Origin: Vicinamibacterales bacterium
GTDB taxonomy: Bacteria; Acidobacteriota; Vicinamibacteria; Vicinamibacterales; UBA8438
Reading direction: 5' to 3'
NCBI GenBank assembly: GCA_964291605.2
Contig: OZ219745.1
Coordinates: 5,001,934 to 5,065,933 of the forward strand
DNA length: 64,000 nt
Shown: piece after piece, positions 1,289 to 62,464 of the stretch
How positions within the stretch are numbered: position 1 is the first letter of the stretch
Layout of the letters: each line of letters starts with the position of its first letter
The notes under the pieces: model-generated
Told to the model about the DNA's origin: nothing
Databases searched by the model: none
What the model saw: the letters and a program-made list of their open reading frames with translations, nothing else
Position numbers and translations under genes: made by a program

Positions 1289-2619
1289 TCACCGGAACTG
1301 CACTGCCGCGCCGCACTTTCCTGCGAGGCATGGGCGCCACCGTCGCCCTTCCGTTCCTCGACGCGATGACGCCGGCTTTCGCACGGGCGTCGACGCCGGT
1401 CACCCGGGTCGCGTTCGTCTACACGGCCAACGGCATCATCATGCAGGACTGGACGCCGGCCGCCGAAGGCGCCGGGTTCGCGTTCAGCAAGACGCTGATG
1501 CCGGTGGAGCCGTTCCGGGACGACCTCCTCGTCCTGACGGGTCTGGCGCACCGCAACGGCGAGGCGCTCGGCGACGGCCCGGGCGATCACGCCCGCGCCG
1601 GCGCGAGCTGGCTTACCGGCGTACACCCGAAGAAGACCCGCGGCGCCGACATCCGCAACGGCATGTCGGTCGACCAGATGCTGGCCGGGACGATCGGCCG
1701 CGACACGCCGCTGCCCTCCCTGGAGCTGGGGCTGCAGGACGTGCGGATGGTGGGCGGCTGCGATTCCGGCTACAGTTGCGCCTACAGCAACACCCTCTCG
1801 TGGAGCTCGCCGACGACGCCGCTGCCCTACGAGAACAACCCGAGCCGGGTCTTCTCGCGGCTGTTCGGCGACGGCGACACCACGGATCCGGCGGTGCGGG
1901 CCGTCCGCGCGCGGCAGAACCGGAGCCTGCTCGACTTCGTGCGCGACGACGCGGCACGGCTGCGGACCACCCTCGGCGCCGGCGACCGGCGCAAGCTGGG
2001 CGACTACCTCGACTCGGTGCGCGAGGTGGAGCGGCGCATCCGGAACGCGCGCTACGACGGCGTCGACCTGCCGGTGCTCGACCGCCCCGACGGCATCCCG
2101 CCGACCTTCGAGGAGCACGTCCGGCTGATGTCGGATCTGGTCACCATCGCGTTCCAGGCCGACCTGACGCGGGTGGTCACGCTGATGTACAGCCGCGAGG
2201 GCGGCAACCGGACCTACCGCTCCATCGGTGTCCCGGACGCGCACCACGGGCTGTCGCACCACCAGAACGACCCGGAGAAGATGGCCCGGCTGGCGATGAT
2301 CGACCGGCACCACGTCGCGATGCTCGCCTACTTCCTCGGCAAGCTGCGGGACGCGCAGGACGAGACCGGATCGCTGCTCGACCACTCGATGGTCGTCTAC
2401 GGCAGCAGCCTGAGCGACTCGAACGCGCACACCCACGACAACCTGCCGACGCTGCTGGCCGGCGGCGGCAGCGGCACGTTACATGGCGGGCGCCATCTGC
2501 GCTATCCCGACGGCACGCCGATGACGAACCTGTTCCTGACCATGCTCGATCGCCTCGGGGTGCAGCGGGAGCAGATCGGCGACAGCACGGGGAGGATTGC
2601 GCACCTCAGCGAGCTGTAG
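1285..2619 (+). CDS. DUF1552 domain-containing protein (Tat-type signal)
   Basis: N-terminal RRTFLRGMGATVALPFLDAM twin-arginine motif. The conserved GVPDAHHGLSHHQNDPEKM block is present. This is the classic partner of the upstream DUF1592-type gene and is coupled to it by an ATGA overlap. Confidence 0.85.
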   Translation: MITGTALPRRTFLRGMGATVALPFLDAMTPAFARASTPVTRVAFVYTANGIIMQDWTPAAEGAGFAFSKTLMPVEPFRDDLLVLTGLAHRNGEALGDGPGDHARAGASWLTGVHPKKTRGADIRNGMSVDQMLAGTIGRDTPLPSLELGLQDVRMVGGCDSGYSCAYSNTLSWSSPTTPLPYENNPSRVFSRLFGDGDTTDPAVRAVRARQNRSLLDFVRDDAARLRTTLGAGDRRKLGDYLDSVREVERRIRNARYDGVDLPVLDRPDGIPPTFEEHVRLMSDLVTIAFQADLTRVVTLMYSREGGNRTYRSIGVPDAHHGLSHHQNDPEKMARLAMIDRHHVAMLAYFLGKLRDAQDETGSLLDHSMVVYGSSLSDSNAHTHDNLPTLLAGGGSGTLHGGRHLRYPDGTPMTNLFLTMLDRLGVQREQIGDSTGRIAHLSEL

Positions 2620-2853
2620 GCAACCGGGTCGTCATCGCGTCGCCCTCCAGCCGCGCAGCGCGAGCACGACCGCGAGAACCGCCAGGCCGAGCGGCGGAAC
2701 CGCCGGCACTCCGGTACCCGATGTTGCTTGTGTCGACCTTCTGGCTGAAACCGTCCAGCACGGTGCCCGATGCGTCTCGCAGTGCGTTCGTTTCCGGCGG
2801 CGTGTACCGCAGAATCACCGTCTCGCCGCCCCGAATCGCTTCGCGAAGGGTAA

Positions 2854-2973
2854 GGGACAACGTCCTGGAGTCCAGAAACGCCACGCTGTCGACCGTAGCT
2901 GACGTGCCGGACAGGGACAGCGTCGTGGAGTCCTCAAACGCCACGCTTTCGACCGTAGCTGACGTGCGGGACA
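2854..2973. repeat. 60-bp tandem duplication (2 units) inside pseudogene copy A
   Basis: Units 2854..2913 and 2914..2973 are near-identical (gggaca[a/g]cgtc[c/g]tggagtcc...gaccgtagctgacgtgc). They encode TSATVESVAFEDSTTLSLSG and TSATVDSVAFLDSRTLSLTL. Copy B has a single unit. Confidence 0.85.
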
Positions 2974-3716
2974 AGGTGAACGCGGAAGTTGCCGGAACGG
3001 CGGACGTATCCATCGCTCTACTGAACCCGACGGTGATGGTCGTGCCGGTGATATCCGCGGCGGCGCCCGTTGTCGGCTCGGGTGTCAGGATCGATGCTGG
3101 CTTTCGCATAGCCGTAGATGGCGACCATCAATGAGGCGTCGGAAGTTGTCCACGGATCGGTGGTAGCGTAAGCCCGATTGAGGCCATCGTCCCCGATGTT
3201 CCCCTCCGCGGCCGTGTCGGTATCGTCGCTGTCACTGCGCGCTGGCGACTTCCGACACCTGTTCCCGGAACCGCTCACGTCTACGACCACGAAATACGTC
3301 GTGCCGGCACCCAGGTCGATGCCTTGGCCGGAGGCCGTGAACCTGTTCTCTTCGTTGTCGACTCAACCCGCTCGGACGGGTTTGTCAGCGTGCCCAGGTT
3401 GCTGCCCGGCTCACCGCCCGAGTTCGAGTGGATGCTCACACTGTAGGTCGGATCCGACGGCGCTGTCGGCTGACTCATCACGATCTCGATACCTACCTCG
3501 GTCAGCTTGTAGCCGCCGGAGTTGCCGCTCATGGTGAACGCCTGGGCGAGGTCGTACAAGTCCAACGACTGAGAAGAAGAGAACGACTGGTCGACGTTGC
3601 CCGTCAGCTTGGTGCTCGTCTGCGCCCACGCCCCCGGGGAAGCGAGCAGCACGGCCACAGTCGACCAGGCCGCCGACCAGGCCGCAAGCCGCAGAATGCC
3701 ACCCGCTACTCTGGCG

Positions 3717-3770
<54 letters not shown>

Positions 3771-4118
3771 GCAATATCCATGCCACTTGCGTCTCGACCC
3801 GTCACGATTCTCGTCATTCACATCTGACCTCCCACAATTGAGATGGCTGGACGCCTCATCCAGCTTGCCCGCGCCAGCAGCCGCCCGTTCGGGGCACACC
3901 TGCTGGAAACTGCCTGAACGTAGACACTGAACTCTAGCAAACCCGCATATCACATTTTCGTGTTTATCTGGTGTACTTATCATGTTTATTTCATCAAATA
4001 GGCTATCCTGGCACCGGGGGGTGACGCCCAGGGCCCCCTCCCGCTCCGGCCCTCGCGGATCGGGATTCGTGCCGAGCCCGCGAAGGAAAAGCCTTGACGC
4101 AACCCGAGGCGAAGGAAA

Positions 4119-4401
4119 ATGACGCAACCCGGCGATCGACTACGCGCAGCGCCGCGTGACGCTTCGAGGGGAGGCGGTCGAGCTCACCGTCACCGAGGAC
4201 GATCTGCTGCGCGTGCTCTCGCTCGACGCGGGACGGGTGGTGACCTTCGAGACGCTGCTGCGGCGGGTCTGGGCCAAGCCGGGGAAAACCGACGCGAACC
4301 TGGTGCGCAATTTCGTCAGGAGCATGCGGCGCAAGCTCGCCGACGGCGCGGCCAGTCGCACCTGCATACTCAACCAGCGCGGCGTCGGGTACCGCATGGC
4401 G
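4119..4401 (+). pseudogene. Remnant of a duplicated sensor kinase/response regulator gene: first ~6 codons joined directly to the wHTH C-terminus
   Basis: Bases 4047..4134 match the leader and start of the 5963 gene (gccttgacgcaa[c/t]ccggcgat). Bases 4135..4401 match 8024..8292 (IDYAQRRVTLRG...GVGYRMA). About 2 kb of internal sequence is missing and the junction is out of frame. Confidence 0.8.
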
Positions 4402-4520
4402 ATCGGTGTCCCGGACGCGCACCAGGGGCTGTCGCACCACCAGAACGACCCGGAGAAGATGGCCCGGCTGGCACAGCACGGGGCGGGTTGCACACCTGGG
4501 CGGGCTGTAGGCAACCGGGT
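4402..4520 (+). pseudogene. Fragment copy of the DUF1552 3' end
   Basis: Bases 4401..4473 match 2224..2295 (IGVPDAH[H/Q]GLSHHQNDPEKMARLA). Bases 4474..4520 then match 2584..2625. About 290 bp of internal sequence is deleted relative to the intact gene. Confidence 0.8.
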
Positions 4521-4522
4521 CG

Positions 4523-5584
<1,062 letters not shown>

Positions 5585-5790
5585 TTGCGTCTCGACCCGT
5601 TGCGATTCTCGTCACGCAAATCCTTACCTCTCCGAATCGACGCCGGTGGACCTCTCCGCCCGCGGTCGAACCGCATCACCAGCTCGACCCCGCCGCGAAG
5701 CTCCCGCGCCACGTCGCCGGGCGCGTACCGTGGGCCGCTCTCGCCTGCGGGGCACACCTGCGGGAAACTGCCTGAACATAGGCACTGAAC

Positions 5791-5962: not shown

Positions 5963-8320
5963 TTGACGCAATCCGGCGATGCGCGGCGGGAGATCGAGGC
6001 GCTGCGCGAGCGGACCTCCAGCCTCAGCGCGGCCATCCTGCGCATCAGCGCCACGCTCGACCTCGACACCGTGCTCGCCGAGGTGGTCGAGAGCGCCCGC
6101 ACGCTCGCCCGGGCCCGCTACGGGGTCATCGTTACGGTCGACGAGGCGGGGGCGCCCACCCTCGACACCGTGTTCGCCGGCTTCACGCCGGAGGAGGAGC
6201 GGGAGCTGGTCGCCTGGCCCGACGGCGGCCGCCTGTTCGAGCACCTCCGCCACCTGCCGGGGCCGTTGCGGCTCGCCGACCTGGCCGGATACGTCCGCTC
6301 CCTCGGCATCGCGCCTGCACGGTTGTTGTCGCGGGCCTTCCAGGGCACGCCGATGCGCCACCGGGGCGTCGACGTCGGCTACTTCTTCCTCGCCGAGAAG
6401 GCCGAGGGCGAGGAGTTCACCGGCGACGACGAGGAGGTGCTGACGCTGCTCGCCTCGCACGCCGCGGCCGCGGTCGCCAACGCGCGGACGCACCGCAGCG
6501 GGCAGCGGGCGCAGGCCGACCTCGAAGCGCTCGTCGAGATCTCGCCGGTCGGGATCGTGGTCTTCGATGCGAAGAGCGGCCGGCCCGCGTCGCTCAACCG
6601 CGAGGCGCGGCGGATCGCCGAGGGCCTGCGGATGGCCGGCGGCCCGATCGAGGAGCTCCTGGAGACGTTCACCCTGCGCCGCGCCGACGGGCGGGAGGTC
6701 TCACTGAGCGAGTTCCCGCTGGCCGGGCTGCTCGGCGCCGGGGAGACGGTGCGCGCCGAGGAGGTCGTGCTTTCGGTCCCCGACGGGCGCAGCGTCAGGA
6801 TGCTGATCAACGTCACGCCGGTACGCGGCGAAGGGGACGAGATCGCGTCGGTGGTGGTGACCGTGCAGGACCTGGCGCCGCTCGACGAGATCGAGCGGAT
6901 GCGGACCGAGTTCCTGGGCCTGGTGAGCCACGAGTTGCGCGCGCCGCTGATCGCCATCAAGGGCTCGGCCGACGCGCTGCTCGAGGAGGCGTCCGAGCTC
7001 GACCCGGCCGAGATGCGCGAGTTCCACCGCATCATCGCCGAGCAGGCCGACCACATGCGCGGCCTCATCCGCGACCTGCTCGATGCGGGGCGCATCGACT
7101 CGGGCACGCTCTCGGTCACCGCCGAACCCTCGGAGGTGGCCGCCCTGGTCGAGCGGGCGCGCAGCACGTTCCTGAGCGGCGGCGGCCGCCACGCCGTCCT
7201 CGTGGACCTGCCGGCGGGGCTGCCCCCGGTGATGGCCGACCGGAGGCGCATCGTGCAGGTGCTCATCAACCTCTTCTCGAACGCCGCGAGGCACGCTCCC
7301 GATTCGACCCCGATCCGGGTGGCGGCCGTGCGCGAGAACGCGCACGTCGCCGTGTCGGTCTCCGACGAGGGAAGCGGGGTGGCGGCCGAGTTGCTGCCGC
7401 ACCTGTTCAGCAAGCACGCCGGCGCAAGGCAGGGGGCGACGGCGGGCCACGGCCTCGGCCTCGCCATCTGCAAGGGACTCGTCGAGGCGCACGGCGGCCG
7501 CATCCGGGCCGAGAGCCCCGGCGCCGGCCGCGGCGCCACGTTCACCTTCACGCTGCCGGTGGCCGGGGAGGCCGGCGCCGTGGCGGCCGATCGCGCCGCC
7601 GTCCCGCCGGCGGCCCCGGAACCCGGAGAGCCACCGCGCATCCTGGTCGTCGACGACGACCCGCGGGCGCTGCGCTTCGTCCGCGACGCGCTCGCCGAGG
7701 CCGGCTTCGCTCCCCTGGTGACCGGCGCGCCCCCGGACCTGCCGCGCATCATCCGCACCGAGAGGCCGCGACTCGTCCTGCTCGACCTCATGCTGCCCGA
7801 CGTCGACGGCATCGAGCTGATGCGCCAGGTCCCCGAGCTCGCCGACGTGCCCGTCATCTTCATCTCCGGCTACGGCCGCGACGAGATCGTCGCCAAGGCG
7901 CTCGATTCGGGCGCGGCCGACTACCTCGTCAAGCCCTTCTCTCCGACCGAGCTGGTCGCCCGGGTCCGGGCGGCGCTGCGGCGCCGCGAGGAGCCCGAGC
8001 CGTTCGTGACCGGAGAGCTCGCCATCGACTACGCGCAGCGCCGCGTGACGCTGCGAGGGAAAGCGGTCGAGCTCACCGTCACCGAGTACGAGCTGCTGCG
8101 CGTGCTCTCGCTCGACGCGGGACGGGTCGTGACCTTCGAGACGCTGCTGCGGCGGGTCTGGACCAAGCCGGGGAGCGCCGACGCGAACCTGGTGCGCAAT
8201 TTCGTCAGGAGCCTGCGGCGCAAGCTCGGTGAAGGCGGGGCCAGCCCCACCTTCATCTTCAACGAGCGCGGCGTCGGCTACCGCATGGCGAAACCGCCTG
8301 GCCGACAGGACCGGTCATGA
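5963..8320 (+). CDS. Single-polypeptide two-component system: GAF-PAS-HisKA-HATPase sensor kinase fused to a receiver and an OmpR-type winged-helix DNA-binding domain
   Basis: H-box FLGLVSHELRAPL. ATPase G-boxes GHGLGLAICKGLVEAHGG. Receiver RILVVDDDP...LVLLDLMLPDVDG...YLVKPF. wHTH LTVTEYELLRVL...GVGYRM. TTG start preceded by GAAGGAGAAG. Confidence 0.85.
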   Translation: MTQSGDARREIEALRERTSSLSAAILRISATLDLDTVLAEVVESARTLARARYGVIVTVDEAGAPTLDTVFAGFTPEEERELVAWPDGGRLFEHLRHLPGPLRLADLAGYVRSLGIAPARLLSRAFQGTPMRHRGVDVGYFFLAEKAEGEEFTGDDEEVLTLLASHAAAAVANARTHRSGQRAQADLEALVEISPVGIVVFDAKSGRPASLNREARRIAEGLRMAGGPIEELLETFTLRRADGREVSLSEFPLAGLLGAGETVRAEEVVLSVPDGRSVRMLINVTPVRGEGDEIASVVVTVQDLAPLDEIERMRTEFLGLVSHELRAPLIAIKGSADALLEEASELDPAEMREFHRIIAEQADHMRGLIRDLLDAGRIDSGTLSVTAEPSEVAALVERARSTFLSGGGRHAVLVDLPAGLPPVMADRRRIVQVLINLFSNAARHAPDSTPIRVAAVRENAHVAVSVSDEGSGVAAELLPHLFSKHAGARQGATAGHGLGLAICKGLVEAHGGRIRAESPGAGRGATFTFTLPVAGEAGAVAADRAAVPPAAPEPGEPPRILVVDDDPRALRFVRDALAEAGFAPLVTGAPPDLPRIIRTERPRLVLLDLMLPDVDGIELMRQVPELADVPVIFISGYGRDEIVAKALDSGAADYLVKPFSPTELVARVRAALRRREEPEPFVTGELAIDYAQRRVTLRGKAVELTVTEYELLRVLSLDAGRVVTFETLLRRVWTKPGSADANLVRNFVRSLRRKLGEGGASPTFIFNERGVGYRMAKPPGRQDRS

Positions 8321-22164: not shown

Positions 22165-22252
22165 CCGCCGGGAGTCTGCGCCGTAGAACGGTGCAGACTC
22201 CTGGTCAGGCCCGGCCGGGCGGCAATCGGAGCCGCAGGCGACGATTGTCGGG
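22165..22252 (-). repeat. Stop-codon-abutting ~90-nt element, copy A (hairpin 22168..22204)
   Basis: It starts immediately after the TAG of 22253..24679. It shares CCCGAC.AATCGTCGCC...GCCGCCCG...hairpin with the copies at 48341..48430 and 25915..26000. Confidence 0.75.
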
Positions 22253-24679
22253 CTAGTTCCGAAACAGCCGGGTGAGCTTTACCACGAACCCGCGGTCGCG
22301 AAGCCCGTCGTAGCGATCCGGCCGCAACGGATCCGTATCCTGCTCCTCGGTGTAGACCACGAACAGCTCGCTGCCCGGCGAGTACTCCCACCGCAGCCGC
22401 AGGTTGGTTCCCAGCGTTCGATTGGCGGAGTTGTACTGCAGCAGGCCGCTGAAGAACATCCGGGGTGAGAACGTGTAGTTCACGCGCGCCCGCGCCAGAT
22501 CGGTGCGGAACGATCCGCCCGGCAGGTCGATCCAGTTGAACGACATGCTCGGCTCGACCGACAGCCGCGACGACAGATCGACCCGGCCCCGGCTCAGATC
22601 GACCGACGTGATCTCGCCGTCGAAGTAGCCGCCGGTCGCCACCTCCACCCGGCCGTTGAGCACCCGCTGCGGGCCGAGCGAGTACGTCAGGCGCACGTCG
22701 GAGAAACCGTAGCCGCCGACGGGTACCGCGACGTCGCCGCCCGAGGGGAAGAACGGTCTCTGCAGCAGCTCGTAGCTGTCGCTCAGGCGAACGCCGAACT
22801 GATCGCTGTTCTCGAGCTCGGTCTGGAAGGCGACCTGGTTCTGGCGCGTCTCGAGAAACCCGGTGTCGGCGGTCACAAAGTAGTCGTGGCTGGCCTCGAG
22901 CACGAACTGCCGCACCGACTCGATGGACCGCGGCCGCGGACTGAAGCGCCCGGACAGCGACGTGCGGCGGAAGTTGCGGCGTCGCAGGAAACCGACCTCC
23001 GGCCGGAAGTTGCCCTCGACGAGCAGATGGTCGGCCTCCAGGCCGTAGCGGTCGGCCCCGTAATCGAATCGCGCCTGGTAGCTCGAATCGCGGCCCGACA
23101 CGCCGGTGGTACCGGTCTTCGCGTAATACCCGAGCAGGTTGACGCTGTCGAAGAAGGAAAAGACGGCGTCGGCGCCGTAGGCCTGGTTCGACCCGTCGCC
23201 GGAGAGGGACAGCGACCGATTCGTCACGATGCCGCCGATGCTGCTCCGCCGGAGTATGTCCCGCTTGACGCGCAGCACCGTGAAGTTCGTGTCCAGGGCC
23301 CCCGAGACCGCCTCGTTGCCGGTCTGGATGTTCAGCGCCCCGACGTCGAAAGCCCCGATCTTTCCCGTCAGGCGCCCCCCGCCGAGGATCGGCACCGCCT
23401 GTCCGCCCTGCAATCCGATACGCCGGCTGTAGAACATCCTCGGCGCGTCGCCGCCGCCGAGCACGCTGCCCCGCCGCAGGCTGCGGGCAGTGCGGAAGCT
23501 GCCGCGGGCGAAGTCGAAGATGCCGCGGCCCTCGAGAAAGAACTCCCGCTTCTCGGGAAAGAACAGGTTGAAACGGGTCAGGTTCACCTGCTGCTCGTCC
23601 ACCTCGACCTGCGCGAAATCGGTGTTCCAGGTGAAGTCCGCGGTCAGGTTCTGGGTAATTCCGTACTTCAGGTCCGCCCCGACCTTCCCGCCGCCCTCGA
23701 ACCGCCTCTCGGGCCCGGAGCCCGGGTCGGCGGCGGCCACCGCGGCCGGGGTCAAGCCGCCGATGGCGTACGGCTTGACCTCCAGGTTAACGCCGGCCGG
23801 CGGCGCTTCGAGCCCGACCAGTGTGCCGGCCGCCGACACCCGGAAGACGCCGCCCCGCCCGCCGAACCCGGCGGCCGAGATCGGGATCAGGGTCAGGTAG
23901 GCCCACTCGTTCTTGCGCATCACCGTGCGCCGGAGCTGGATCCCCCACACCTGGTCGCGCGCCGGCCGGTAGCGCAGCGACTTGAAGGGGACGACCATCT
24001 CGATGGTCCAGCCGCCGTCGAACCGGTCCGTCTTGACGTCCCACACCGGGTTCCAGTCGCGGTTGGGATTGCCCTCGTTCGTCAGCGCCTGATCGACGAA
24101 CCCACCCAACGGGTTCGCGTAGAACAGCAGCGCGTTGCGGCGGTCGTAGAACGTGTCGATCAGGAAACCGAACAGGTCGTTGTTCAACATGTTGAACGCG
24201 TCGCGGCGCATCTCGGTGGCCACCCATGCGCTGGGCGGCGCGCTGTCCCAGCAGCGCCCTGCGACGTAGAAGTTCTCGTCGTCGAACATCACCCACGCGT
24301 CGGTCCGCTCGGTAGCCAGCGCACCTTCGTCCGGAAGCTGCTGGATGAAACCGGAAACCGGCGCGACGGAGTCGTAGACCGGCTCGTCGAGGCGGCCGTC
24401 GACGTCGATGCCGGCGAGGAGGCGGATGGCGCGCATCGTCGCCTGCCCCCCGTCCCGCGTGATCACGTCGGGCGCCACGGGTGCGGGAGGTCCGTCGATG
24501 ACGATGTCGGTCTCGAATCGCGTGCCGTCGGGGACGGGCGCCGGCGTGCCGGCGGCGATCTGCGCCCGCGGCGACGGCTGCCCGGCGGACTGCGCCGCTG
24601 CCGGCGCGGCACACGACACGAGGAACGCCAGCATGGCGCCGGTAGCGATTGGCCTCATGAACGGTGTGGATCCTCGCAC
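22253..24679 (-). CDS. CBM9-like/DUF5916 domain protein
   Basis: Signal peptide. DGRLDEPVYDSV...GFIQQLPDEG...WNPVWDVKTDRF...WGIQLRRTV. C-terminal beta-rich region ending TRLFRN. Paralog of the downstream gene. Confidence 0.8.
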   Translation of the reverse strand: MRGSTPFMRPIATGAMLAFLVSCAAPAAAQSAGQPSPRAQIAAGTPAPVPDGTRFETDIVIDGPPAPVAPDVITRDGGQATMRAIRLLAGIDVDGRLDEPVYDSVAPVSGFIQQLPDEGALATERTDAWVMFDDENFYVAGRCWDSAPPSAWVATEMRRDAFNMLNNDLFGFLIDTFYDRRNALLFYANPLGGFVDQALTNEGNPNRDWNPVWDVKTDRFDGGWTIEMVVPFKSLRYRPARDQVWGIQLRRTVMRKNEWAYLTLIPISAAGFGGRGGVFRVSAAGTLVGLEAPPAGVNLEVKPYAIGGLTPAAVAAADPGSGPERRFEGGGKVGADLKYGITQNLTADFTWNTDFAQVEVDEQQVNLTRFNLFFPEKREFFLEGRGIFDFARGSFRTARSLRRGSVLGGGDAPRMFYSRRIGLQGGQAVPILGGGRLTGKIGAFDVGALNIQTGNEAVSGALDTNFTVLRVKRDILRRSSIGGIVTNRSLSLSGDGSNQAYGADAVFSFFDSVNLLGYYAKTGTTGVSGRDSSYQARFDYGADRYGLEADHLLVEGNFRPEVGFLRRRNFRRTSLSGRFSPRPRSIESVRQFVLEASHDYFVTADTGFLETRQNQVAFQTELENSDQFGVRLSDSYELLQRPFFPSGGDVAVPVGGYGFSDVRLTYSLGPQRVLNGRVEVATGGYFDGEITSVDLSRGRVDLSSRLSVEPSMSFNWIDLPGGSFRTDLARARVNYTFSPRMFFSGLLQYNSANRTLGTNLRLRWEYSPGSELFVVYTEEQDTDPLRPDRYDGLRDRGFVVKLTRLFRN

Positions 24680-25873: not shown

Positions 25874-25905
25874 GAGAGCCGGGCGGGACTCCCCGTCCGG
25901 CTCTC
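25874..25905 (+). terminator. Hairpin downstream of the DUF3500 gene
   Basis: gagagccgg-N14-ccggctctc forms a 9-bp stem, followed by cgttcgttc. Confidence 0.35.
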
Positions 25906-25914
25906 CGTTCGTTC

Positions 25915-26000
25915 GGCCGGGAGTCCGCGCCGCAATAGGGGGACAGACTCCCAGCCCGGGTTGGTCGGGCGGAAAGCGGAACGAGGCGACGATTTCCGGA
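25915..26000 (-). repeat. Stop-codon-abutting ~90-nt element, copy C (diverged; hairpin arms 25919..25925 and 25946..25952)
   Basis: It starts right after the TAG of 26001..27311. The minus strand reads TAGTCCGGAAATCGTCGCC...TTCCGCCCGAC...GGGAGTC...GACTCCCGG. Confidence 0.6.
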
Positions 26001-27311
26001 CTACGACGGCGAGGGGCGTCCGTGCCCGCCGGCGTTCGAGCGGATTACCACGAGCGTGCGGTCGTCGCTCTGCCGCCCGGCGCCGAAGCGGTGCACGTCC
26101 TGCATCACCCGGCTGCACAGCTCCGTCGCTCCGGCGTCTCCCGCCTCGCGCAGCGTGCTGATGAACCGCGAGCTGCCGTACTCCTCTCCGTCGGGGTTGG
26201 TCTGCTCGACGATGCCGTCCGTGTACAGGCCCACGACGTCGCCCGCGGCCAACGTCGCGTGTCCTTCGAAGTAACGCGGCGACTCGAAAAGGCCGAGCGG
26301 GACTCCGCCCTCCTCCAGCAGCTCGACCTCGCCGGTCGCGCGCACGAGAACCGGTGGCACGTGCCCCGCGTTGACGTAGAGCACGCTCCTCGCCGGCACG
26401 TCGAGCACCATGTAGAAGAGCGTGACGTAGCGCCCCTCCTCGACCGACTCGTGAAAGAAGCGGTTGGCGCGGCGCATGATCGCCCGCACGGCCAGCTCGT
26501 GGCCGACCAGCGAGGCGATGGAGGCCCGAATCGCCGCGACCAGCAGGGCCGCTGCAATGCCCTTGCCCACGACGTCGGCGATCACCACGCCCCAGCGATC
26601 CTCCGGCAACGGAATGAACTCGTAGTAGTCGCCGCCGACCGCGAGCGAGGATTCGTGCGCTCCCGCGATATCGAAGCCGGCGAGCGTCGGGGTCGCCCGC
26701 GGAAGCAGATCCTCCATCACGTCCCGCGCGAGCGCGAGATCGCTGTCGAGACGACGCTTGTCGCGCACTTCCGCGATGAGGCGGGCGTTCTCGATGGTCG
26801 CGGCGACGGCCGACGCATACACCCCGACCACCGCCTCCGCCGCCGGGCCGTAGCCGGACGACCGGTCGGACCACAGATCGAGCGCGCCCCGCACGCGGCC
26901 TCGGGAGCCGATGAGGGGCACCACCAGCCGGGAGCGCGCGCGTTCGCGTCCTTCGCAGACGCCCGCCTGATCGTGCAGCGAGATGGGCTCGCCGGTAGCC
27001 AGGACCCGCCCCACCACGCCGTGCTCCTCGAACGGCGCCGCGATGTCGACGGGCATGGGATTGATGCAGCCGCGCGCGAGGCTGTGCGACACCCGCCCGC
27101 CGAGCGGATCGACCACGTAGATGCCGGCCGCGTCGTGATCGACGAGCGACACCAGGCCGTCGAGGATGCCGTTGAGGATACGTCCCGCGTCGCTGCCATC
27201 GGTCGTCAAGCGGAACGCCTCGACCATGACGCGCGCACCGGCGACGGCGTCCTCGCCGACCCTGGCCGTGGGACGGCGGGTATCGCTGACGGAATCGCCT
27301 GTATTCGGCAT
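26001..27311 (-). CDS. GAF domain-containing PP2C/SpoIIE-family protein phosphatase
   Basis: N-terminal GAF (ILNGILDGLVSLVDHDAAGIYVVD...PLIG). C-terminal PPM domain (GGDYYEFIPL...VIADVVGKG...LYTDGIVE). Confidence 0.85.
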   Translation of the reverse strand: MPNTGDSVSDTRRPTARVGEDAVAGARVMVEAFRLTTDGSDAGRILNGILDGLVSLVDHDAAGIYVVDPLGGRVSHSLARGCINPMPVDIAAPFEEHGVVGRVLATGEPISLHDQAGVCEGRERARSRLVVPLIGSRGRVRGALDLWSDRSSGYGPAAEAVVGVYASAVAATIENARLIAEVRDKRRLDSDLALARDVMEDLLPRATPTLAGFDIAGAHESSLAVGGDYYEFIPLPEDRWGVVIADVVGKGIAAALLVAAIRASIASLVGHELAVRAIMRRANRFFHESVEEGRYVTLFYMVLDVPARSVLYVNAGHVPPVLVRATGEVELLEEGGVPLGLFESPRYFEGHATLAAGDVVGLYTDGIVEQTNPDGEEYGSSRFISTLREAGDAGATELCSRVMQDVHRFGAGRQSDDRTLVVIRSNAGGHGRPSPS

Positions 27312-41655: not shown

Positions 41656-41732
41656 GCGCCCGTAGCTCAGCTGGATAGAGCGCCGGGCTTCGAACCCGTA
41701 GGTCGGGGGTTCAAATCCCTCCGGGCGCGCCA
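41656..41732 (+). tRNA. tRNA-Arg: tRNA-Arg (TCG)
   Basis: Hand-folded cloverleaf. The anticodon loop is CTTCGAA. One C-U mismatch closes the anticodon stem. CCA is encoded. Confidence 0.85.
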
Positions 41733-45155: not shown

Positions 45156-45336
45156 GGGCTGCTGCCCCGCGCGTCCATGTTGCCGACATCGCGGACGTGC
45201 CGGCGCATTTGACGCCGGGGTCCGGAACCGTAGTACGCTTACGGCTCATGCACTGGACGGGCATGAGGCCGTCGCAGATGGCCCGTCTGCAGCCGGATGA
45301 CTTCCGCCTCGACGAGCCCACGCCGTTCCCAAGGAC
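45128..45336 (+). pseudogene. Possible internal fragment of a tyrosine recombinase/integrase gene abutting the tRNA
   Basis: [27 protein letters not shown] resembles the L.L.TG.R.SE...L.W.D.D box. The reading frame runs straight into the tRNA-Arg 5' end. Confidence 0.3.
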
Positions 45337-45413
<77 letters not shown>

Positions 45414-45450
45414 ACTCTTCAGGCCCTTTTCCTCGTTCCGGCCGGAGAGC

Positions 45451-45590
45451 ATGGCGGAAGGCGAGCATCACGATTCGCAACCCTCGACGACGACGTCAAG
45501 ACCCGACTGCGCGTGCGGGCGGCGGACAACGGCCGCTCCATGGAAGAGGAAACGCGCCTGATCGAGGCGCTGGCGGACGCGGGCATCGAA
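45451..45590 (+). pseudogene. Frameshifted ribbon-helix-helix (FitA/VapB-like) antitoxin remnant
   Basis: SITIRN in one frame and [27 protein letters not shown] in the next frame. An extra C in aaccctcgac breaks the typical SITIRNLDDDVK. No PIN toxin gene follows. Confidence 0.5.
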
Positions 45591-45638
45591 GCCCGCCACT
45601 GGAGCGAGGTCGGTGACGGCGCGGCTTCCGACGAGAGG

Positions 45639-47861: not shown

Positions 47862-48041
47862 CGGCGCGCCTCCCTTCGGACAACCTCGCCGGGCCGCCCG
47901 TATGGTCCGCGATTATAGGTCGCGGGGCCGGGCTCTCGATGCCGACTCCGTACCACACCGACCATTGCGCCGCACGCGGATGACGGAACGCTATACTCTT
48001 GGACGCAACGAGTGAAACACTCGCACGTGGAGGAAGAAGCC

Positions 48042-48341
48042 ATGACGTGGCAAAGAGCGGGTCTCGCCGCCGCCATCGCATTCGGGTTGACGCTGGTGGA
48101 GATGTGGCCGCACACCGCCACCGTGGTCATCGCCTGCAGCGCCTGCTACGTACTCTCGAAGAACCTGGCCGGCCAGGCCGTACTGGCGAACGGCACGCCC
48201 ATCTCCATGCAGACCGGCGTCCCCCTCGCTGCCGTCCTGCTGGGATTGACGCTCGTGGACCTGTGGCCCCACGCGGTCACGCTGGGGATCGGCGTCGTGG
48301 TCCTCTGGGCAATCTGCGCGCGCCTGGATTCGTCGGCCTGA
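48042..48341 (+). CDS. Small membrane protein with an internal two-fold repeat
   Basis: AIAFGLTLVEMWPHTATVVIA and AVLLGLTLVDLWPHAVTLGIG are duplicated helices. Third-position GC is high. The ORF may start at 48012. Confidence 0.4.
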   Translation: MTWQRAGLAAAIAFGLTLVEMWPHTATVVIACSACYVLSKNLAGQAVLANGTPISMQTGVPLAAVLLGLTLVDLWPHAVTLGIGVVVLWAICARLDSSA

Positions 48342-48430
48342 CCCGACAGGAGGCTGCGCCGTAGAACGGTGCAGCCTCCTGCCAGACTCGAGTCGGGCGG
48401 CATCGGGGCCGCGGGCGACGATTAGTCGGG
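48341..48430 (-). repeat. Stop-codon-abutting ~90-nt element, copy B (hairpin 48347..48381)
   Basis: It starts right after the TAG of 48431..48889. The hairpin caggaGgctgc-gccgtagaacggt-gcagCctcctg differs from copy A by a compensatory pair. Confidence 0.75.
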
Positions 48431-48889
48431 CTACTCCGGAGCGGCCTCCTGCTGCTGCAGGCACTGGCTGACGATCTGGTCGCTCCCGAACACGTTGAAC
48501 TCCAGTTCCCGGTCGGCCGCGCGCACGGTCAGGAGGTTGGCGTTGCGCAACATCCGGAACATGAAATCGCGCCCGGGACCGCTGGCGATGGCAAGGAAAT
48601 ACCCCCCGGACTGCCAGCGGACCGCAATATTGCGCTGCCCGCCGGGAACGCCGCGCATCGTGACCCCGCGGACCGAATTGACCGGCTGGGCGAACTGCAG
48701 GGCCGCCCCCGTGCCCCGGGTCAGACACTGCAGGAAGATCGCGTCGCCCCCTCCGGTGAAGAGCCGAAACTCCTTCCCACCCTCGACATCCGTCTCCACC
48801 CACAGCGCCTGTCCGGCGGCGGGAACCGCGCCGAGCGTGGCCAGCACGCCCAGCAGCGCCAGAGCCGTAACCGTGTGCTTTGTCGTCAT
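48431..48889 (-). CDS. Secreted protein of unknown function, paralog 1 of 3
   Basis: Signal peptide ...LATLGAVPAAGQ. Shared blocks EGGKEF.LF, AI.L.C, RG.PG...N, GRDF, F.VFGS..IV.QC. The ATG overlaps the stop of paralog 2 (ATGA). Confidence 0.7.
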   Translation of the reverse strand: MTTKHTVTALALLGVLATLGAVPAAGQALWVETDVEGGKEFRLFTGGGDAIFLQCLTRGTGAALQFAQPVNSVRGVTMRGVPGGQRNIAVRWQSGGYFLAIASGPGRDFMFRMLRNANLLTVRAADRELEFNVFGSDQIVSQCLQQQEAAPE

Positions 48890-49401
48890 TGCGGATCGTT
48901 GCTCCCCCACGTGATGAGCGCCGGCTGTTCCTGGGAGCGGCTCATGCCCGCAGCCCGGTCCTCCATCTGCTCCATGCACTGCTCGACAATCGTGGCGCTG
49001 CCGAACACCGCGAACGTCGACGCCCGGCCGGAGGCCCGCACGTAGAGGCTCGAGGCGGTACGCAGCATCGCCATCGTAAAGTCGAGACCCCGGCCGCCCG
49101 CGACCTGCACGGTGTGGTTGCTGACGGGGTCGACGACGACGTTCTGCCGCGCGCCGGGAATGCCGCGCACCACCGCTCGATCCGTGGGATCGACCGGCTC
49201 GGCGAACGCGAAGCCGGCGCCCATCCCCTGGAGGCGACACGCGAGAATGATTGCGGCGCCGTCGTCGTTGAAGAGCAGGAACTCCTTGCCCCCGCCCTCG
49301 AGGTTGCGCGACTGCCACCGGTCCTGTTGTCCGGCGGCAGGAACCGCGCCGGCCGTCGCGAGAACGCCGAGCACCGCCAGCGCCGATATGGCTGGCCTCA
49401 T
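48886..49401 (-). CDS. Secreted protein of unknown function, paralog 2 of 3
   Basis: Signal peptide ...LATAGAVPAAGQ and the same conserved blocks, including two Cys. It has a longer C-terminal tail. Confidence 0.7.
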   Translation of the reverse strand: MRPAISALAVLGVLATAGAVPAAGQQDRWQSRNLEGGGKEFLLFNDDGAAIILACRLQGMGAGFAFAEPVDPTDRAVVRGIPGARQNVVVDPVSNHTVQVAGGRGLDFTMAMLRTASSLYVRASGRASTFAVFGSATIVEQCMEQMEDRAAGMSRSQEQPALITWGSNDPQ

Positions 49402-49411
49402 GGTCCGCTCC

Positions 49412-49882
49412 TCAGAATTGCCGCCGCGGGTCCCCGATCAGCGACTCCTGCAGCTCGATGCACTCCCGGACGGTCGATTCGCTCCCGAAGACCTCGAACG
49501 CGAGGTTCTGTCCGGCCGCGCGCACCGAGAGCCGGGTGGCCGATTGCAGCAGATCCAGCATGAAGTCGCGCCCGCGGGCGCCAACGACCTGCAGCAACTG
49601 CGCGGCGACCTGCGTCACCTGGACGTTCTCCTGCCCCCCGGGCGTCCCCCGTATGGTGGCCCGATCCGCCGACTCGATCGGCTCGGGAAACTGGAACGCG
49701 ACGGCCTGCCCGTTGACCAGGCACAGCATCACGATCGCGGACCCGTCCTCGTTGTTGAGCTGGAACTGCTTGCCGCCGCCCTGGACGTCCATCGAGGCCC
49801 ATTGCGCCTGCCCGGCGGCCGGCGACGCGCCGAACGCCAGGAGCAGGCCGAGCACGGCGGTCGCGGCTGCTGTCGTCTTCAT
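49412..49882 (-). CDS. Secreted protein of unknown function, paralog 3 of 3
   Basis: Signal peptide ...LLAFGASPAAGQ and the same blocks (GGGKQFQL, AIVMLC, RGTPGGQEN, GRDF, FEVFGSESTVREC). GAGGGGG lies upstream of the ATG. Confidence 0.7.
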   Translation of the reverse strand: MKTTAAATAVLGLLLAFGASPAAGQAQWASMDVQGGGKQFQLNNEDGSAIVMLCLVNGQAVAFQFPEPIESADRATIRGTPGGQENVQVTQVAAQLLQVVGARGRDFMLDLLQSATRLSVRAAGQNLAFEVFGSESTVRECIELQESLIGDPRRQF

Positions 49883-61814: not shown

Positions 61815-61832
61815 CGATTTTCTTAGAAAAAG

Positions 61833-61908
61833 TGGTGAGCCGCCAGGGACTCGAACCCCGAACCCGCAGATTAAGAGTCTGCTGCTCTACCAGTTGAGCT
61901 AGCGGCCC
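61833..61908 (-). tRNA. tRNA-Lys: tRNA-Lys (CTT)
   Basis: Hand-folded cloverleaf on the minus strand. The anticodon loop is CTCTTAA. CCA is encoded. The T-rich 3' flank is where the IS sits. Confidence 0.9.
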
Positions 61909-62464
61909 ACACCGTTTGGAATCAACGACTTACGAGAATCCACCGAAGTACTGCCAGCCGGTACTGCCGCGCCAGACGGTGTCGACCCAAGCGGCAGCAC
62001 CTAGAGATCGTAGCATGCCACGTCCGAGAGGATGCGGGACTTCTCCGGTCGGTGGGCCGACCTCGGTGGTCGAGCCAATCTGGCCGCATGCCGCCCTACG
62101 GTGGTCCGCCTGGGCGATGCCGTCCGGCGAAAGCTGCCCGCGGACACGGTCGGCGGGCGGCCGGAGACCACCCTGGTTCGTCGCGAGGTGGTCGGGGACG
62201 GTTGGGAGCTGGGCTCGCCAGACACTCTCCGCGGTCGCGCTCGGCCACGAGCTCGGCGCTGGCCTCGAGGATGTATCGATTCTCCTCGTGAAGTGCTTCG
62301 TCAACTGGCTCCAGCGGTGATGTCCGGTCCTCGTCCTTGGCATCGCCGGCGGTGGAGCGTTGCCCGGCCTGTCTGCGCTCGGGGAAATACGGTCGTCGGA
62401 TCGCAGCGGGCGCGGAACGGACTTGCCGTAGAGACGTGCTCGGAGTCGGTCTTGGCGTCGGCGA

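Follow-up and report, generated by a model that had tools for sequence, protein, structure and literature searches.

Many copies of a small hairpin-forming repeat are present in Vicinamibacterales (Acidobacteriota) that are marine or live in association with sponges and corals. Rather than a regulatory signal tied to particular genes, it represents a lineage-specific family within a type of bacterial repeat that is already known, and its copies are probably non-autonomous mobile DNA elements that lack terminal inverted repeats (TIRs), are targeted to the triplet TAG and resemble REPs and IS200/IS605-derived elements. The unit has been inserted immediately 3' of a pre-existing 5'-TAG-3', adding 83-85 nt (the unit and 3 nt), and related genomes differ in whether a given gene end carries it.

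Three copies in the window

The window (the whole 64-kb stretch of DNA that was analysed) contains three minus-strand copies of an 81-82-nt unit with a 3-nt junction, each located directly after a TAG stop codon. Copies A, B and C adjoin the stops at 22253-22255, 48431-48433 and 26001-26003, respectively, and their host genes are unrelated. A first-pass annotation had aligned the three sequences as TAG, [C/T]CCG.., AATCGTCGCC, 12-14 nt, CCGCCCG, 14 nt and a long hairpin, and this alignment holds; an exact match to AATCGTCGCC is found at each of these three sites and nowhere else in the window. When the whole 64 kb was searched with a covariance model and the filters off, only copies A, B and C were found (104, 81 and 68 bits, respectively), the next-ranked matches being the palindromic reverse strands of the same three copies. 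The features are as follows.

48346..48430, minus strand: copy B, inserted segment of 85 nt (81 bits; empty orthologues L129 and L130)
48349-48430, minus strand: copy B, 82-nt core, CCCGACTAATCG...GCAGCCTCC
48346-48348, minus strand: copy B, distal junction triplet TGT
48392..48419, minus strand: copy B, hairpin 1 of the 5' module, GTCG / GCGGC - loop - GCCGC / CGAC
48349..48379, minus strand: copy B, hairpin 2, REP-like palindrome, GGAGGCTGC-A-CCGT-TCT-ACGG-C-GCAGCCTCC
48431..48433, minus strand: TAG stop of gene B (48431..48889), the insertion target; the element begins at the next base
48342-48345: original 4-nt spacer CGGG beside copy B, outside the element and the same in L130
48339-48341: TGA stop of the convergent plus-strand gene 48012..48341 (the minus strand reads TCA), the same in L130
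22168..22252, minus strand: copy A, inserted segment of 85 nt (104 bits; empty orthologue L119)
22171-22252, minus strand: copy A, 82-nt core, with the junction triplet CGG at 22168-22170
22171-22201, minus strand: copy A, hairpin 2
22253..22255, minus strand: TAG stop of gene A (DUF5916 protein, 22253..24679), the insertion target
25917..26000, minus strand: copy C, decayed (68 bits), with an 81-nt core at 25920-26000 and the triplet CGG at 25917-25919
26001..26003, minus strand: TAG stop of gene C (GAF and SpoIIE/PP2C phosphatase, 26001..27311)
25874..25893, minus strand: native terminator-like hairpin with a T-rich tail, downstream of copy C and outside the element

At copy B, BLAST breakpoints lie at 48345 and 48434, and the stem of hairpin 2 reaches out to 48346-48382. 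The extent of 48341-48430 that had been proposed for this element does contain it; however, 48342-48345 is the original spacer and 48341 belongs to the convergent TGA, so these positions are not part of the element. A convergent gene of 99 aa is called at every locus orthologous to site B.

Copy C retains the outer stem of hairpin 2, but both of its hairpins have degenerate inner stems, in agreement with the diverged inner stem noticed earlier. An orthologous copy is present in L065. Copy C was inserted between the gene C stop and a terminator that was already there: the empty orthologues L119, L125 and L127 have an equivalent (GAGCCGG..CCGGCTC) of the terminator at 25874..25893.

Structure and distribution of the repeat family

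In the unit of approx. 80 nt, a conserved 45-nt 5' module, which includes a short hairpin (CCCGRMAATCGTCGCC-TGCGGCTCCGATTGCCGC-CCGACC), is joined to a REP-like palindrome of 31-37 nt, GGAGTCTGCRCCGTTCTACGGCGCAGACTCC. Hairpin 1 begins 10 nt inside the left end, and hairpin 2 extends to the right end. On either side, the unit borders TAG or one of its decayed forms (TGG, CGG, CAG or TGA). The base that precedes TAG at the 5' junction may be C, G, A or T; the tag is thus NTAG or YRG.

In 453 kb of DNA from over 20 Vicinamibacterales metagenome-assembled genomes (MAGs), the covariance model detects 60 copies, a copy being a match at E <= 1e-6; a relaxed regular-expression census gave false positives in coding DNA. 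In a pattern scan of 185,579 genomes, the true copies among the matches listed came almost exclusively from MAGs of Vicinamibacterales or Acidobacteria; plasmid and phage collections gave no match. Some of the units form head-to-tail arrays with a period of 83 nt (5.9 and 4.2 copies); the model matches include no inverted doublets, except for the palindrome matching itself. At least one sister family, with a unit of 103 nt, shares both termini with the 80-nt unit, and solo hairpin-2 units exist. In a host-associated metagenome, the read depth over hairpin 2 is approx. 14,500, against 40-100 in the flanks (approx. 360 times a flank depth of about 40). Such depth spikes, together with many loose ends, indicate that the repeat breaks short-read assemblies.

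Empty and filled sites in related genomes

At site B, the sequence TAG-CGGG-TCA of relatives corresponds to TAG-[85 nt]-CGGG-TCA in the window. In particular, orthologues L129 and L130 have TAG-CAGG/CGGG-TCA with nothing between, and the TAG of gene B is present at all six empty orthologous sites. In one relative, a sister element in the opposite orientation adjoins the gene B stop (loose end 48437).

At site A, the empty orthologue L119 reads aac-TAG-CGAGGGCGTAAACG, whereas the window reads aac-TAG-[85 nt]-CGGAGCGGGTAAACG. The TAG of gene A is conserved in all eight orthologues examined, among which L119, L126 and L128 are without the element, L125 has reversed hairpin-2 units at the gene end and L127 has a short hairpin-2-like stretch. 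In L090, whose identity to the window is 96-99%, an additional sister element of 103 nt sits exactly at the gene A TAG; this insertion is flanked by a CTAGC repeat, within which TAG stands on both sides. Moreover, the element follows the TAG of a PEP-mutase gene in L119, and six empty relatives of that gene end in TAG as well.

At gene C, comparison of copy C with its empty sites gave no clean breakpoint. The stop at this codon is TGA in all seven close empty orthologues and TAG in one distant orthologue; hence, either the insertion was preceded by a change of stop codon or a stop can be replaced by the element. The distal TAG/YRG triplet of the unit may be a duplicated target or the element's own end.

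Association with stop codons

Elements adjoin 20 of 99 TAG-ending genes and 1 of 111 TGA-ending genes, which is in line with the earlier remark that none was noticed behind the TGA-terminated minus-strand genes inspected by eye. That the copies begin at TAG stops is likewise a real rule: the empty and filled sites place the insertion directly after TAG, and the copies start on TAG stops because it is immediately after this triplet that the element inserts. The abutted TAG stops lie on either strand, and the element is found in both orientations relative to the gene. In about 15 copies, an open reading frame (ORF) of 190 codons or more terminates in frame at the 5' junction TAG. Convergent ORFs stop at the distal CTCC|TAG in 11 copies; they stop at the loop CTA, which lies 15 nt beyond in the same frame, in at least six cases validated by frame and in one gene call from a database. 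On this loop TAG, gene callers terminate real genes within the repeat.

The association with stop codons probably arises because insertions into TAGs inside genes are lethal. In a genome of approx. 70% G+C, most TAGs lie inside genes, and the surviving insertions would pile up on TAG stops. Insertion on the gene's own strand would place the element behind that gene's stop; where the stop lies within CTAG, the element could also lie reversed, in which case its distal ...CTCC|TAG end would re-create the stop. A junction TAG that serves as a stop would be kept by selection while the other junction decays. Once the distal TAG has decayed, the convergent gene would read five codons on to the in-frame TAG of the hairpin loop. 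However, about 60% of copies abut a gene end exactly, whereas stop TAGs account for approx. 15% of non-genic TAGs; a preference for TAG alone is therefore insufficient, and selection or true targeting of the stop context must add to it.

A signal for UAG recoding (PYLIS-like) was also considered and rejected: in-frame stops follow 3-16 codons on, and orthologues lack the element.

Hairpins, covariation and a possible role in RNA

Copies A and B share the hairpin GGAG[T/G]CTGC-A-CCGT-TCT-ACGG-C-GCAG[A/C]CTCC, in which, as the first-pass annotation pointed out, a T-to-G change is matched by an A-to-C change. Both copies fold far better than shuffled sequences, as RNA (z = -3.4 for copy A and -4.8 for copy B) and as DNA (z = -4.9 and -4.7, respectively); copy C folds no better than shuffles in either form. 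In an alignment of 37 copies, helices 1-2 (hairpin 1) are 90-97% paired and conserved in sequence, with no covariation. For the long hairpin, the MAFFT alignment of the 37 copies with a hand-set structure yielded no covariation above shuffles, and RNAalifold did not recover the hairpin from this alignment, in which the loops are misaligned. When 59 copies were aligned by fitting to the model, an approach that favours the structure, 40 double-change cells were counted compared with 20 +/- 3.5 in shuffles. The long hairpin thus appears to have modest covariation, graded so because the excess is seen in the model-fitted alignment only. Compensatory changes may stem from an RNA function but are equally expected of a single-stranded DNA hairpin recognised by a transposase, and the reading of the compensatory change as a sign of gene-linked RNA or 3'-UTR function is not supported.

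The alternative closest to that reading is a 3'-UTR RNA module selected by the host (a terminator without a T-tract, an mRNA-stabilising hairpin, a 3'UTR-derived sRNA or a protein-binding RNA), which would be kept beside stop codons by its action on the transcript, or on the termination of translation. We consider it unlikely. All three window copies are sense-oriented directly after a stop, the pairing of hairpin 2 is kept by the compensatory changes counted above, and the hairpin of copy B is the only structure between two convergent genes; however, relatives of gene B have just 4 nt between the convergent stops and no substitute structure, and gene A orthologues such as L119 lack both the element and a substitute. 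REPs elsewhere are thought to act as RNA hairpins and lie mostly just 3' of ORFs, according to PMC3733652. The present repeat stands beside genes in both orientations and its mismatches show no strand bias (77 G.U vs 97 A.C), and its arrays of four to six units and hundreds of copies beside unrelated genes fit spread better than a function. A metatranscriptome contig spans the site, but such contigs are 85-90% identical to it, the evidence is at contig level and DNA carry-over is possible. Copy C, itself decaying, lies upstream of a pre-existing terminator.

No copy has a T-tract or matches an Rfam family. A terminator scan of either strand called no T-tract terminator at copies A, B or C, and a canonical (intrinsic) terminator was rejected; the scan does call the separate site at 25893-25874. 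A known RNA family was likewise rejected: with Rfam 15, four tRNAs alone pass the gathering score in the window, and a permissive scan of copy A returned only matches at E >= 0.7 that reflect a generic hairpin shape. The 3'UTR-derived sRNA and protein-binding options raised by the first-pass annotation do not agree with the absence of the element from the same gene ends in close relatives; its "lineage-specific REP-like module" was the closest of the options offered. Any role as an mRNA 3' hairpin (a stabiliser or a barrier between convergent genes) would be a by-product of the mobile repeat.

Mode of movement and candidate enzyme

Less probable still than an RNA module is a classical MITE of a DDE transposase (IS5/IS630-like), with TAG or TA as a target duplicated on insertion. 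Some IS5-group elements prefer CTAG-like targets, and the fresh sister insertion in L090, with TAG on both sides within CTAGC, would suit such an element; moreover, DDE transposases of the IS4/IS5 type occur in these genomes. However, TIRs are missing, as is evident when CCCGRMAATCG... is set against the reverse complement of ...GCAGACTCC, and in older copies the distal triplet is not TAG. The first base of this triplet covaries with the stem (pair 59-143), so that a part of the element fits better than a duplicated target. The flanks of the DDE element in L119 were examined and have no end like this repeat. The earlier statement that the element has neither TIRs nor a T-tract was borne out by the terminator scan and by comparison of the element ends by eye, in which no TIRs were seen. 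A 6-nt match (CCCGAC/GTCGGG) in copy B was rejected as a TIR, as it pairs the element start with the original flank.

Local duplication or gene conversion of a 3' flank, or chance resemblance, has next to no probability: a paralogue of gene A does lie 3.2 kb away, but it ends in TGA without the element, the three host genes are unrelated, and this element-less paralogue and the 60 further copies in more than 20 independently assembled genomes refute the idea.

For the TAG-targeted mobile repeat, movement would be mediated by a single-stranded DNA "peel and paste" enzyme of the HUH/Y1 class, either a RAYT or an IS200/IS605-type transposase, which would recognise the subterminal hairpins and TAG as the cleavage or target site. 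A tblastn search of 1.13 Mb (well under 1% of the genomes sampled) with approximate IS200 TnpA and E. coli RAYT queries gave nothing credible. The gene tables of 16 loci list only DDE, IS110 and IS21 transposases, whose ends are unrelated to the element, and the flanks of the L119 DDE transposase and of L129 (an IS110-type gene) have no matching ends. IS200/IS605 insertion has a lagging-strand bias; the element strand, compared with the sign of the local GC skew over 8 kb, which is a crude proxy, was divided 22 vs 27 (p = 0.57).

A more far-reaching proposal, which we put forward tentatively and hold to be rather doubtful, is a single-stranded DNA transposon that homes to stop codons, with TAG specificity built into the element, gene ends as a safe harbour, spare stops on the opposite strand and perhaps a new HUH-type enzyme. 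Such an element would land on the last codon in either orientation and leave the protein unchanged, and the distal CTAG and the hairpin loop would be its spare in-frame stops for the opposite strand. Its specificity might be for TAG in the context of a gene end. The sister families would then share one end-recognition system, with a HUH-type enzyme of Acidobacteriota mobilising them, and the empty and filled sites would show directly how REP-like repeats spread.

Implications

Masking or annotation of the repeat, and of at least two sister families, is advisable in Vicinamibacterales MAGs. The repeat does not reveal a new kind of regulatory system; rather, it explains an association with stop codons that could otherwise be mistaken for recoding or 3'-UTR regulation. 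The pairs of empty and filled sites show a REP-like repeat that lacks TIRs landing precisely behind TAG, and one stop codon being hit repeatedly by different family members. REP-type dissemination, the mechanism of which is called poorly understood in PMC8266576, thereby becomes testable in a new phylum.

Comparison with known systems

REP-type repeats that donate TAG stops are already known; what is new is this Vicinamibacterales family. Intrinsic terminators share with it a stable G+C-rich hairpin downstream of a stop, but the present element has no T/U tract, includes a conserved 5' module and is repeated, and at copy C the native terminator is separate.

Classical MITEs (Correia elements of Neisseria and those derived from IS630/IS5) can supply stop or start signals to neighbouring genes. 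Like the present repeat, they are non-coding, interspersed, approx. 100 nt long and associated with a short AT-containing target (TA or CTAG); in contrast to it, they have TIRs and a clear target-site duplication.

A further comparison is with REPs of the GTAG-tagged superfamily and their RAYT (TnpA-REP) enzymes ("REPtrons"). Each repeat is an extragenic, G+C-rich imperfect palindrome of small size (20-40 bp in REPs, 31-37 nt in hairpin 2) that reaches high copy number, lies mostly just 3' of ORFs or between convergent genes, and is represented by several families per genome. Both also have a TAG-containing tag beside the stem that is degenerate at its middle positions and often is itself the TAG stop of the adjacent ORF. 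In PMC3733652 (Di Nocera 2013), the termini of GTAG REPs are described as often providing TAG stops to neighbouring ORFs, and their tag as degenerating to GYRG or GTRG. The present unit differs in its length (approx. 80 nt), in its additional hairpin and conserved 45-nt module, in having TAG at both ends and in a first tag base that is not a conserved G. The conserved unpaired 5' GTAG of REPs is absent; TAG lies 3' of hairpin 2, after a stem C, and only the other strand of the CTAG junctions reads 5'-CTAG-stem. REPs usually occur as inverted dimers (BIME, REPIN, HH/TT dimers) and rarely head to tail, whereas the arrays found here are head-to-tail. A RAYT gene is typically flanked by REPs; none was found here in 1.13 Mb with approximate queries. 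RAYTs cleave at C|T beside the hairpin, according to PMC8266576, and the distal boundary CTCC|TAG of the present unit is alike.

IS200/IS605 elements and their ORF-less derivatives, the palindrome-associated transposable elements (PATEs), differ from the repeat in some respects: the target here is 3 nt (TAG) and not the 4-5 nt known from characterised members, the 1.13 Mb of fetched DNA yielded no tnpA or tnpB partner that has these ends, and no orientation bias was found relative to local GC skew, a weak 8-kb proxy. They are nevertheless alike in having no TIRs and a hairpin near each end, in inserting immediately 3' of a short specific sequence with the flanks otherwise untouched, and in a right end that resembles the target and allows head-to-tail reinsertion. 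The apparently seamless presence or absence of the unit at gene ends fits the single-strand "peel and paste" movement of IS200/IS605 elements, for which PMC8266576 gives background.

Three copies in the window

Within the window, the element follows the minus-strand stops of three genes, after which its copies A, B and C are named:

22253-22255, minus strand: TAG stop of gene A (DUF5916 protein)
48431-48433, minus strand: TAG stop of gene B (conserved 152-aa protein, no Pfam family)
26001-26003, minus strand: TAG stop of gene C (GAF and SpoIIE phosphatase)

Each copy runs from the TAG through [C/T]CCG.., AATCGTCGCC, 12-14 nt, CCGCCCG and 14 nt into a long hairpin, and the alignment of the three sequences proposed in the first-pass annotation is confirmed as described, as is the single compensated pair (T-A to G-C) by which the otherwise identical hairpins of copies A and B differ; copy C retains the outer stem alone. 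As an exact 10-mer, AATCGTCGCC is present three times in the 64 kb, always at these copies, and in the same stretch a covariance model run with filters off recovers copies A, B and C only (104, 81 and 68 bits). Whether treated as RNA or as DNA, copies A and B fold far more strongly than shuffled sequence and copy C no better than it. No T-tract follows any of the three, and Rfam has no family that matches them.

Other repeats are also present in the window. Gene B and its two upstream neighbours (48431-49802, minus strand) are tandem paralogous small ORFs without a Pfam family that have a repeated 58-nt segment in common; ORFs of this type have 39 uncharacterised homologues, seemingly restricted to this clade. 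Positions 2582-3824 and 4473-5622 form a tandem duplication of ~1.83 kb (80-95% identity), each duplicate carrying a (TGGC)8 microsatellite (3736-3770 and 5534-5568), and 4132-4402 is 92% identical to 8021-8291. Two tRNA genes (41656-41729 and 45337-45410; 83% alike) lie on either side of a 1153-aa ORF. Short stretches at or near tRNA genes (45331-45638 and 61815-61917) are 96-99% identical to spots in L129-L131 (L-numbers denote loci fetched from related genomes), where integrase and transposase genes are also present, and may be integration hot spots.

Anatomy and spread of the repeat family

The element core measures 80-82 nt and consists of three parts, bordered by one triplet on each side:

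Left end: CCCGRMAATC
Hairpin 1: GTCG..GCGGC-TCCGATT-GCCGC.CGAC, highly conserved in sequence, without covariation
Hairpin 2: (CCR)GGAGTCTGCRCCGTTCTACGGCGCAGACTCC(YGG), after a variable 10-14-nt linker

Of 60 copies, ~20 have TAG as the left triplet and the others TGG, CGG, CAG, TGA or TCG; the right triplet is TAG, TGG or CGG. As the first-pass annotation had observed, terminal inverted repeats are absent, the two ends showing no inverted-repeat relation.

A pattern derived from copies A, B and C matched at least 118 loci in a scan of 185,579 species, each represented by a single genome. Among the matches listed, about half are chance hits in unrelated taxa and the remainder full-length copies, nearly all in Vicinamibacterales or 'Acidobacteria' MAGs. 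A covariance-model search, run with a model built from 37 copies, covered 453 kb of these genomes and counted 60 copies (E <= 1e-6), some of them without the exact search pattern. The element is thus a repeat family, and it is reiterated in head-to-tail arrays with an 83-nt period (5.9 units, 97% alike, in L038; 4.2 units in L058). Plasmid and phage collections gave no match. Runs containing the window's DNA are sponge, coral-reef and marine metagenomes, in one of which hairpin 2 reaches a read depth of ~14,500 versus ~40 in single-copy flanks. In run X23, a metatranscriptome contig of 1.7 kb, 85-90% identical and derived from a relative, covers window positions 48039-49400 and with them the two convergent genes and the repeat between them; read-through RNA or DNA carry-over could account for it.

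Several families with common termini coexist. Members of a second family measure 103 nt. Their left end (CGCCCCGAAACGCC) resembles that of the studied element (CCCGGAAATCGTCGCC), they have the right end (..GCGGCGCAGACTCC + TAG) and the TAG junctions in common with it, and their interior is different:

L090:619-721, 103-nt family
L118:5591-5693, 103-nt family
L075:362-551, 103-nt family
L098:3251-3345, 103-nt family

The same genomes contain solo hairpin-2 units (L134:1780-1822; also L125, after gene A) and at least one further palindromic family, a small intergenic repeat GGAGTCTCGCGCCAGCGAAACTCCCAACGCG.. (L120:11380-11410; also L112, L107 and L060). At L119:6294-6440, a TAG stop is directly followed by two degenerate 5' modules of the element in reverse orientation, which lie beside an IS4/IS5-type DDE transposase gene (L119:6502-7713) that is absent from syntenic loci.

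Empty and filled sites

Orthologous loci were obtained via homologues of genes C and B. In relatives with 87-95% protein identity, site B reads ..TAG CGGG TCA.. or ..TAG CAGA TCA.., the convergent stops being 4 nt apart, versus ..TAG (85 nt) CGGG TCA.. in the window, where the flank is unaltered (BLAST breakpoints 48345 and 48434). Gene A ends in TAG in 8/8 orthologues examined; its site is empty in L119, L126 and L128 (aac TAG CGAGGGCGTAAACG in L119 versus aac TAG (85 nt) CGGAGCGGGTAAACG in the window), filled in L120, occupied at the TAG by two reversed solo hairpins in L125, and followed in L127 by a short hairpin-2-like stretch (TAG GAGTCC...). In L090, whose genome is 96-99% identical to the window, an extra 103-nt sister element bounded by the repeat CTAGC lies between the TAG of gene A and copy A; it is a very recent insertion. 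A PEP-mutase gene carries the element right after its TAG in L119; among relatives, six end in TAG with no element there and one ends in TGA. In another relative, the stop of gene B is adjoined by an opposite-oriented sister element (loose end 'GCGGCGCAGACCCC TAG' before 48437). Together, these sites show that insertion occurs immediately 3' of a pre-existing TAG, that the same TAG is reused, and that the superfamily has recently been active. Site C departs from this pattern: in seven close empty orthologues the stop at this codon is TGA, and a TAG end is seen only in a distant one, so the gene C stop may have drifted before insertion or been replaced. Copy C lies between this stop and a native terminator also found in empty orthologues.

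Association with stop codons

In ~15 copies, a long ORF on the same strand (190-900 codons) ends in frame at the TAG of the left junction. On the opposite strand, the right end ...CTCC|TAG reads CTA, and in 11 copies this CTA terminates a long convergent ORF. If the right triplet is TGG or CGG instead, the convergent ORF often extends by exactly five codons, to a CTA in the hairpin loop that lies 15 nt away in the same frame; at least six of these ORFs qualify as genuine genes in a test of codon-position G+C, and in L134 a gene called in the database terminates at this loop TAG (L134:1803-1805, opposite strand). The last five codons of such genes (..ESAP*) come from the repeat, an annotation and protein-family artefact to watch for. 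The element offers clean natural insertion sites at TAG and encoded back-up stops, together with an annotation hazard to be flagged for MAGs of this clade.

With gene ends assigned by a simple frame-composition caller, which reproduced most database stop positions, the element directly abuts 20/99 TAG-ending genes and 1/111 TGA-ending genes, so the 'TAG only' rule of the first-pass annotation holds. At loci that had been selected without regard to the element, overall stop usage is TGA 104, TAG 66 and TAA 3.

RNA or DNA signal

In a MAFFT alignment of 37 copies with a hand-set structure, pairing (87%) did not exceed that of column shuffles, whereas in a model-fitted alignment of 59 distinct copies hairpin 2 shows compensatory changes in 10/17 pairs and 40 double-change cells versus 20 +/- 3.5 after shuffling (reached in 0/500 shuffles). 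Because the latter alignment is biased towards structure and the copies are related, this covariation is real but modest, and it does not discriminate between an RNA hairpin and a single-strand-DNA hairpin. On the element strand, G.U pairs (77) are no commoner than A.C mismatches (97), which are G.U on the other strand. Moreover, both orientations relative to abutted genes occur. The lack of G.U excess, the two orientations, presence/absence variation, arrays and copy number speak for a selfish element at the DNA level rather than an RNA signal tied to genes; of the earlier interpretations, the REP-like one stands and a gene-specific RNA element does not.

Proposed mechanism

The element is non-autonomous, lacks terminal inverted repeats, carries two hairpins and adds 83-85 nt directly after TAG. 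We infer that it may be moved by a single-strand-DNA HUH/Y1 enzyme, as in IS200/IS605 and REP/RAYT systems, for which PMC8266576 describes recognition of subterminal hairpins, short cleavage sites beside them and insertion 3' of a specific short target. The right boundary, CTCC|TAG, is a C|T step, as at RAYT cleavage sites. Searches by tblastn with approximate Y1 queries in 1.13 Mb (<1% of the genomes), and of the flanks of the L119/L129 transposase loci, found no transposase for it. Element orientation was unrelated to local GC skew in a crude test. The distal triplet may be a duplicated target or the element's own end: TAG stands on both sides of a fresh insertion, and the triplet's first base covaries with the stem in older copies.

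The stop-codon association would follow from target choice for TAG, from purifying selection against insertions in genes, invoked because 1107 of the 1463 TAGs in 211 kb lie in genes, and from retention of the junction TAG only where it is used as a stop, the other junction decaying to YRG. Stop TAGs make up ~15% of non-genic TAGs, yet ~60% of copies abut a gene end; therefore, insertions on the promoter side must also be selected against, or the element must truly prefer gene ends.

Relation to known systems

Among described systems, GTAG-tagged REPs and IS200/IS605-derived PATEs come closest. As described by Di Nocera et al. (2013, PMC3733652), ORFs flanking GTAG REPs often take their TAG stop from the REP termini, degeneration of the tag affects its middle positions, the repeats are no more than 20 bp from the 3' ends of convergent ORFs, and several families occur together; the element matches all four features. 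It differs in that its unit is a composite with two hairpins, with TAG at both ends, no conserved leading G and a head-to-tail organisation, and in that no RAYT was seen with it in the 1.13 Mb examined. Owing to its structural differences, it lacks two defining REP features. The element fits the architecture of PATEs, but no partner IS, which would prove membership, turned up in the DNA examined. It is not a new regulatory system; we classify it as a previously undescribed, lineage-specific, small palindromic interspersed repeat without terminal inverted repeats, similar to REPs and PATEs.
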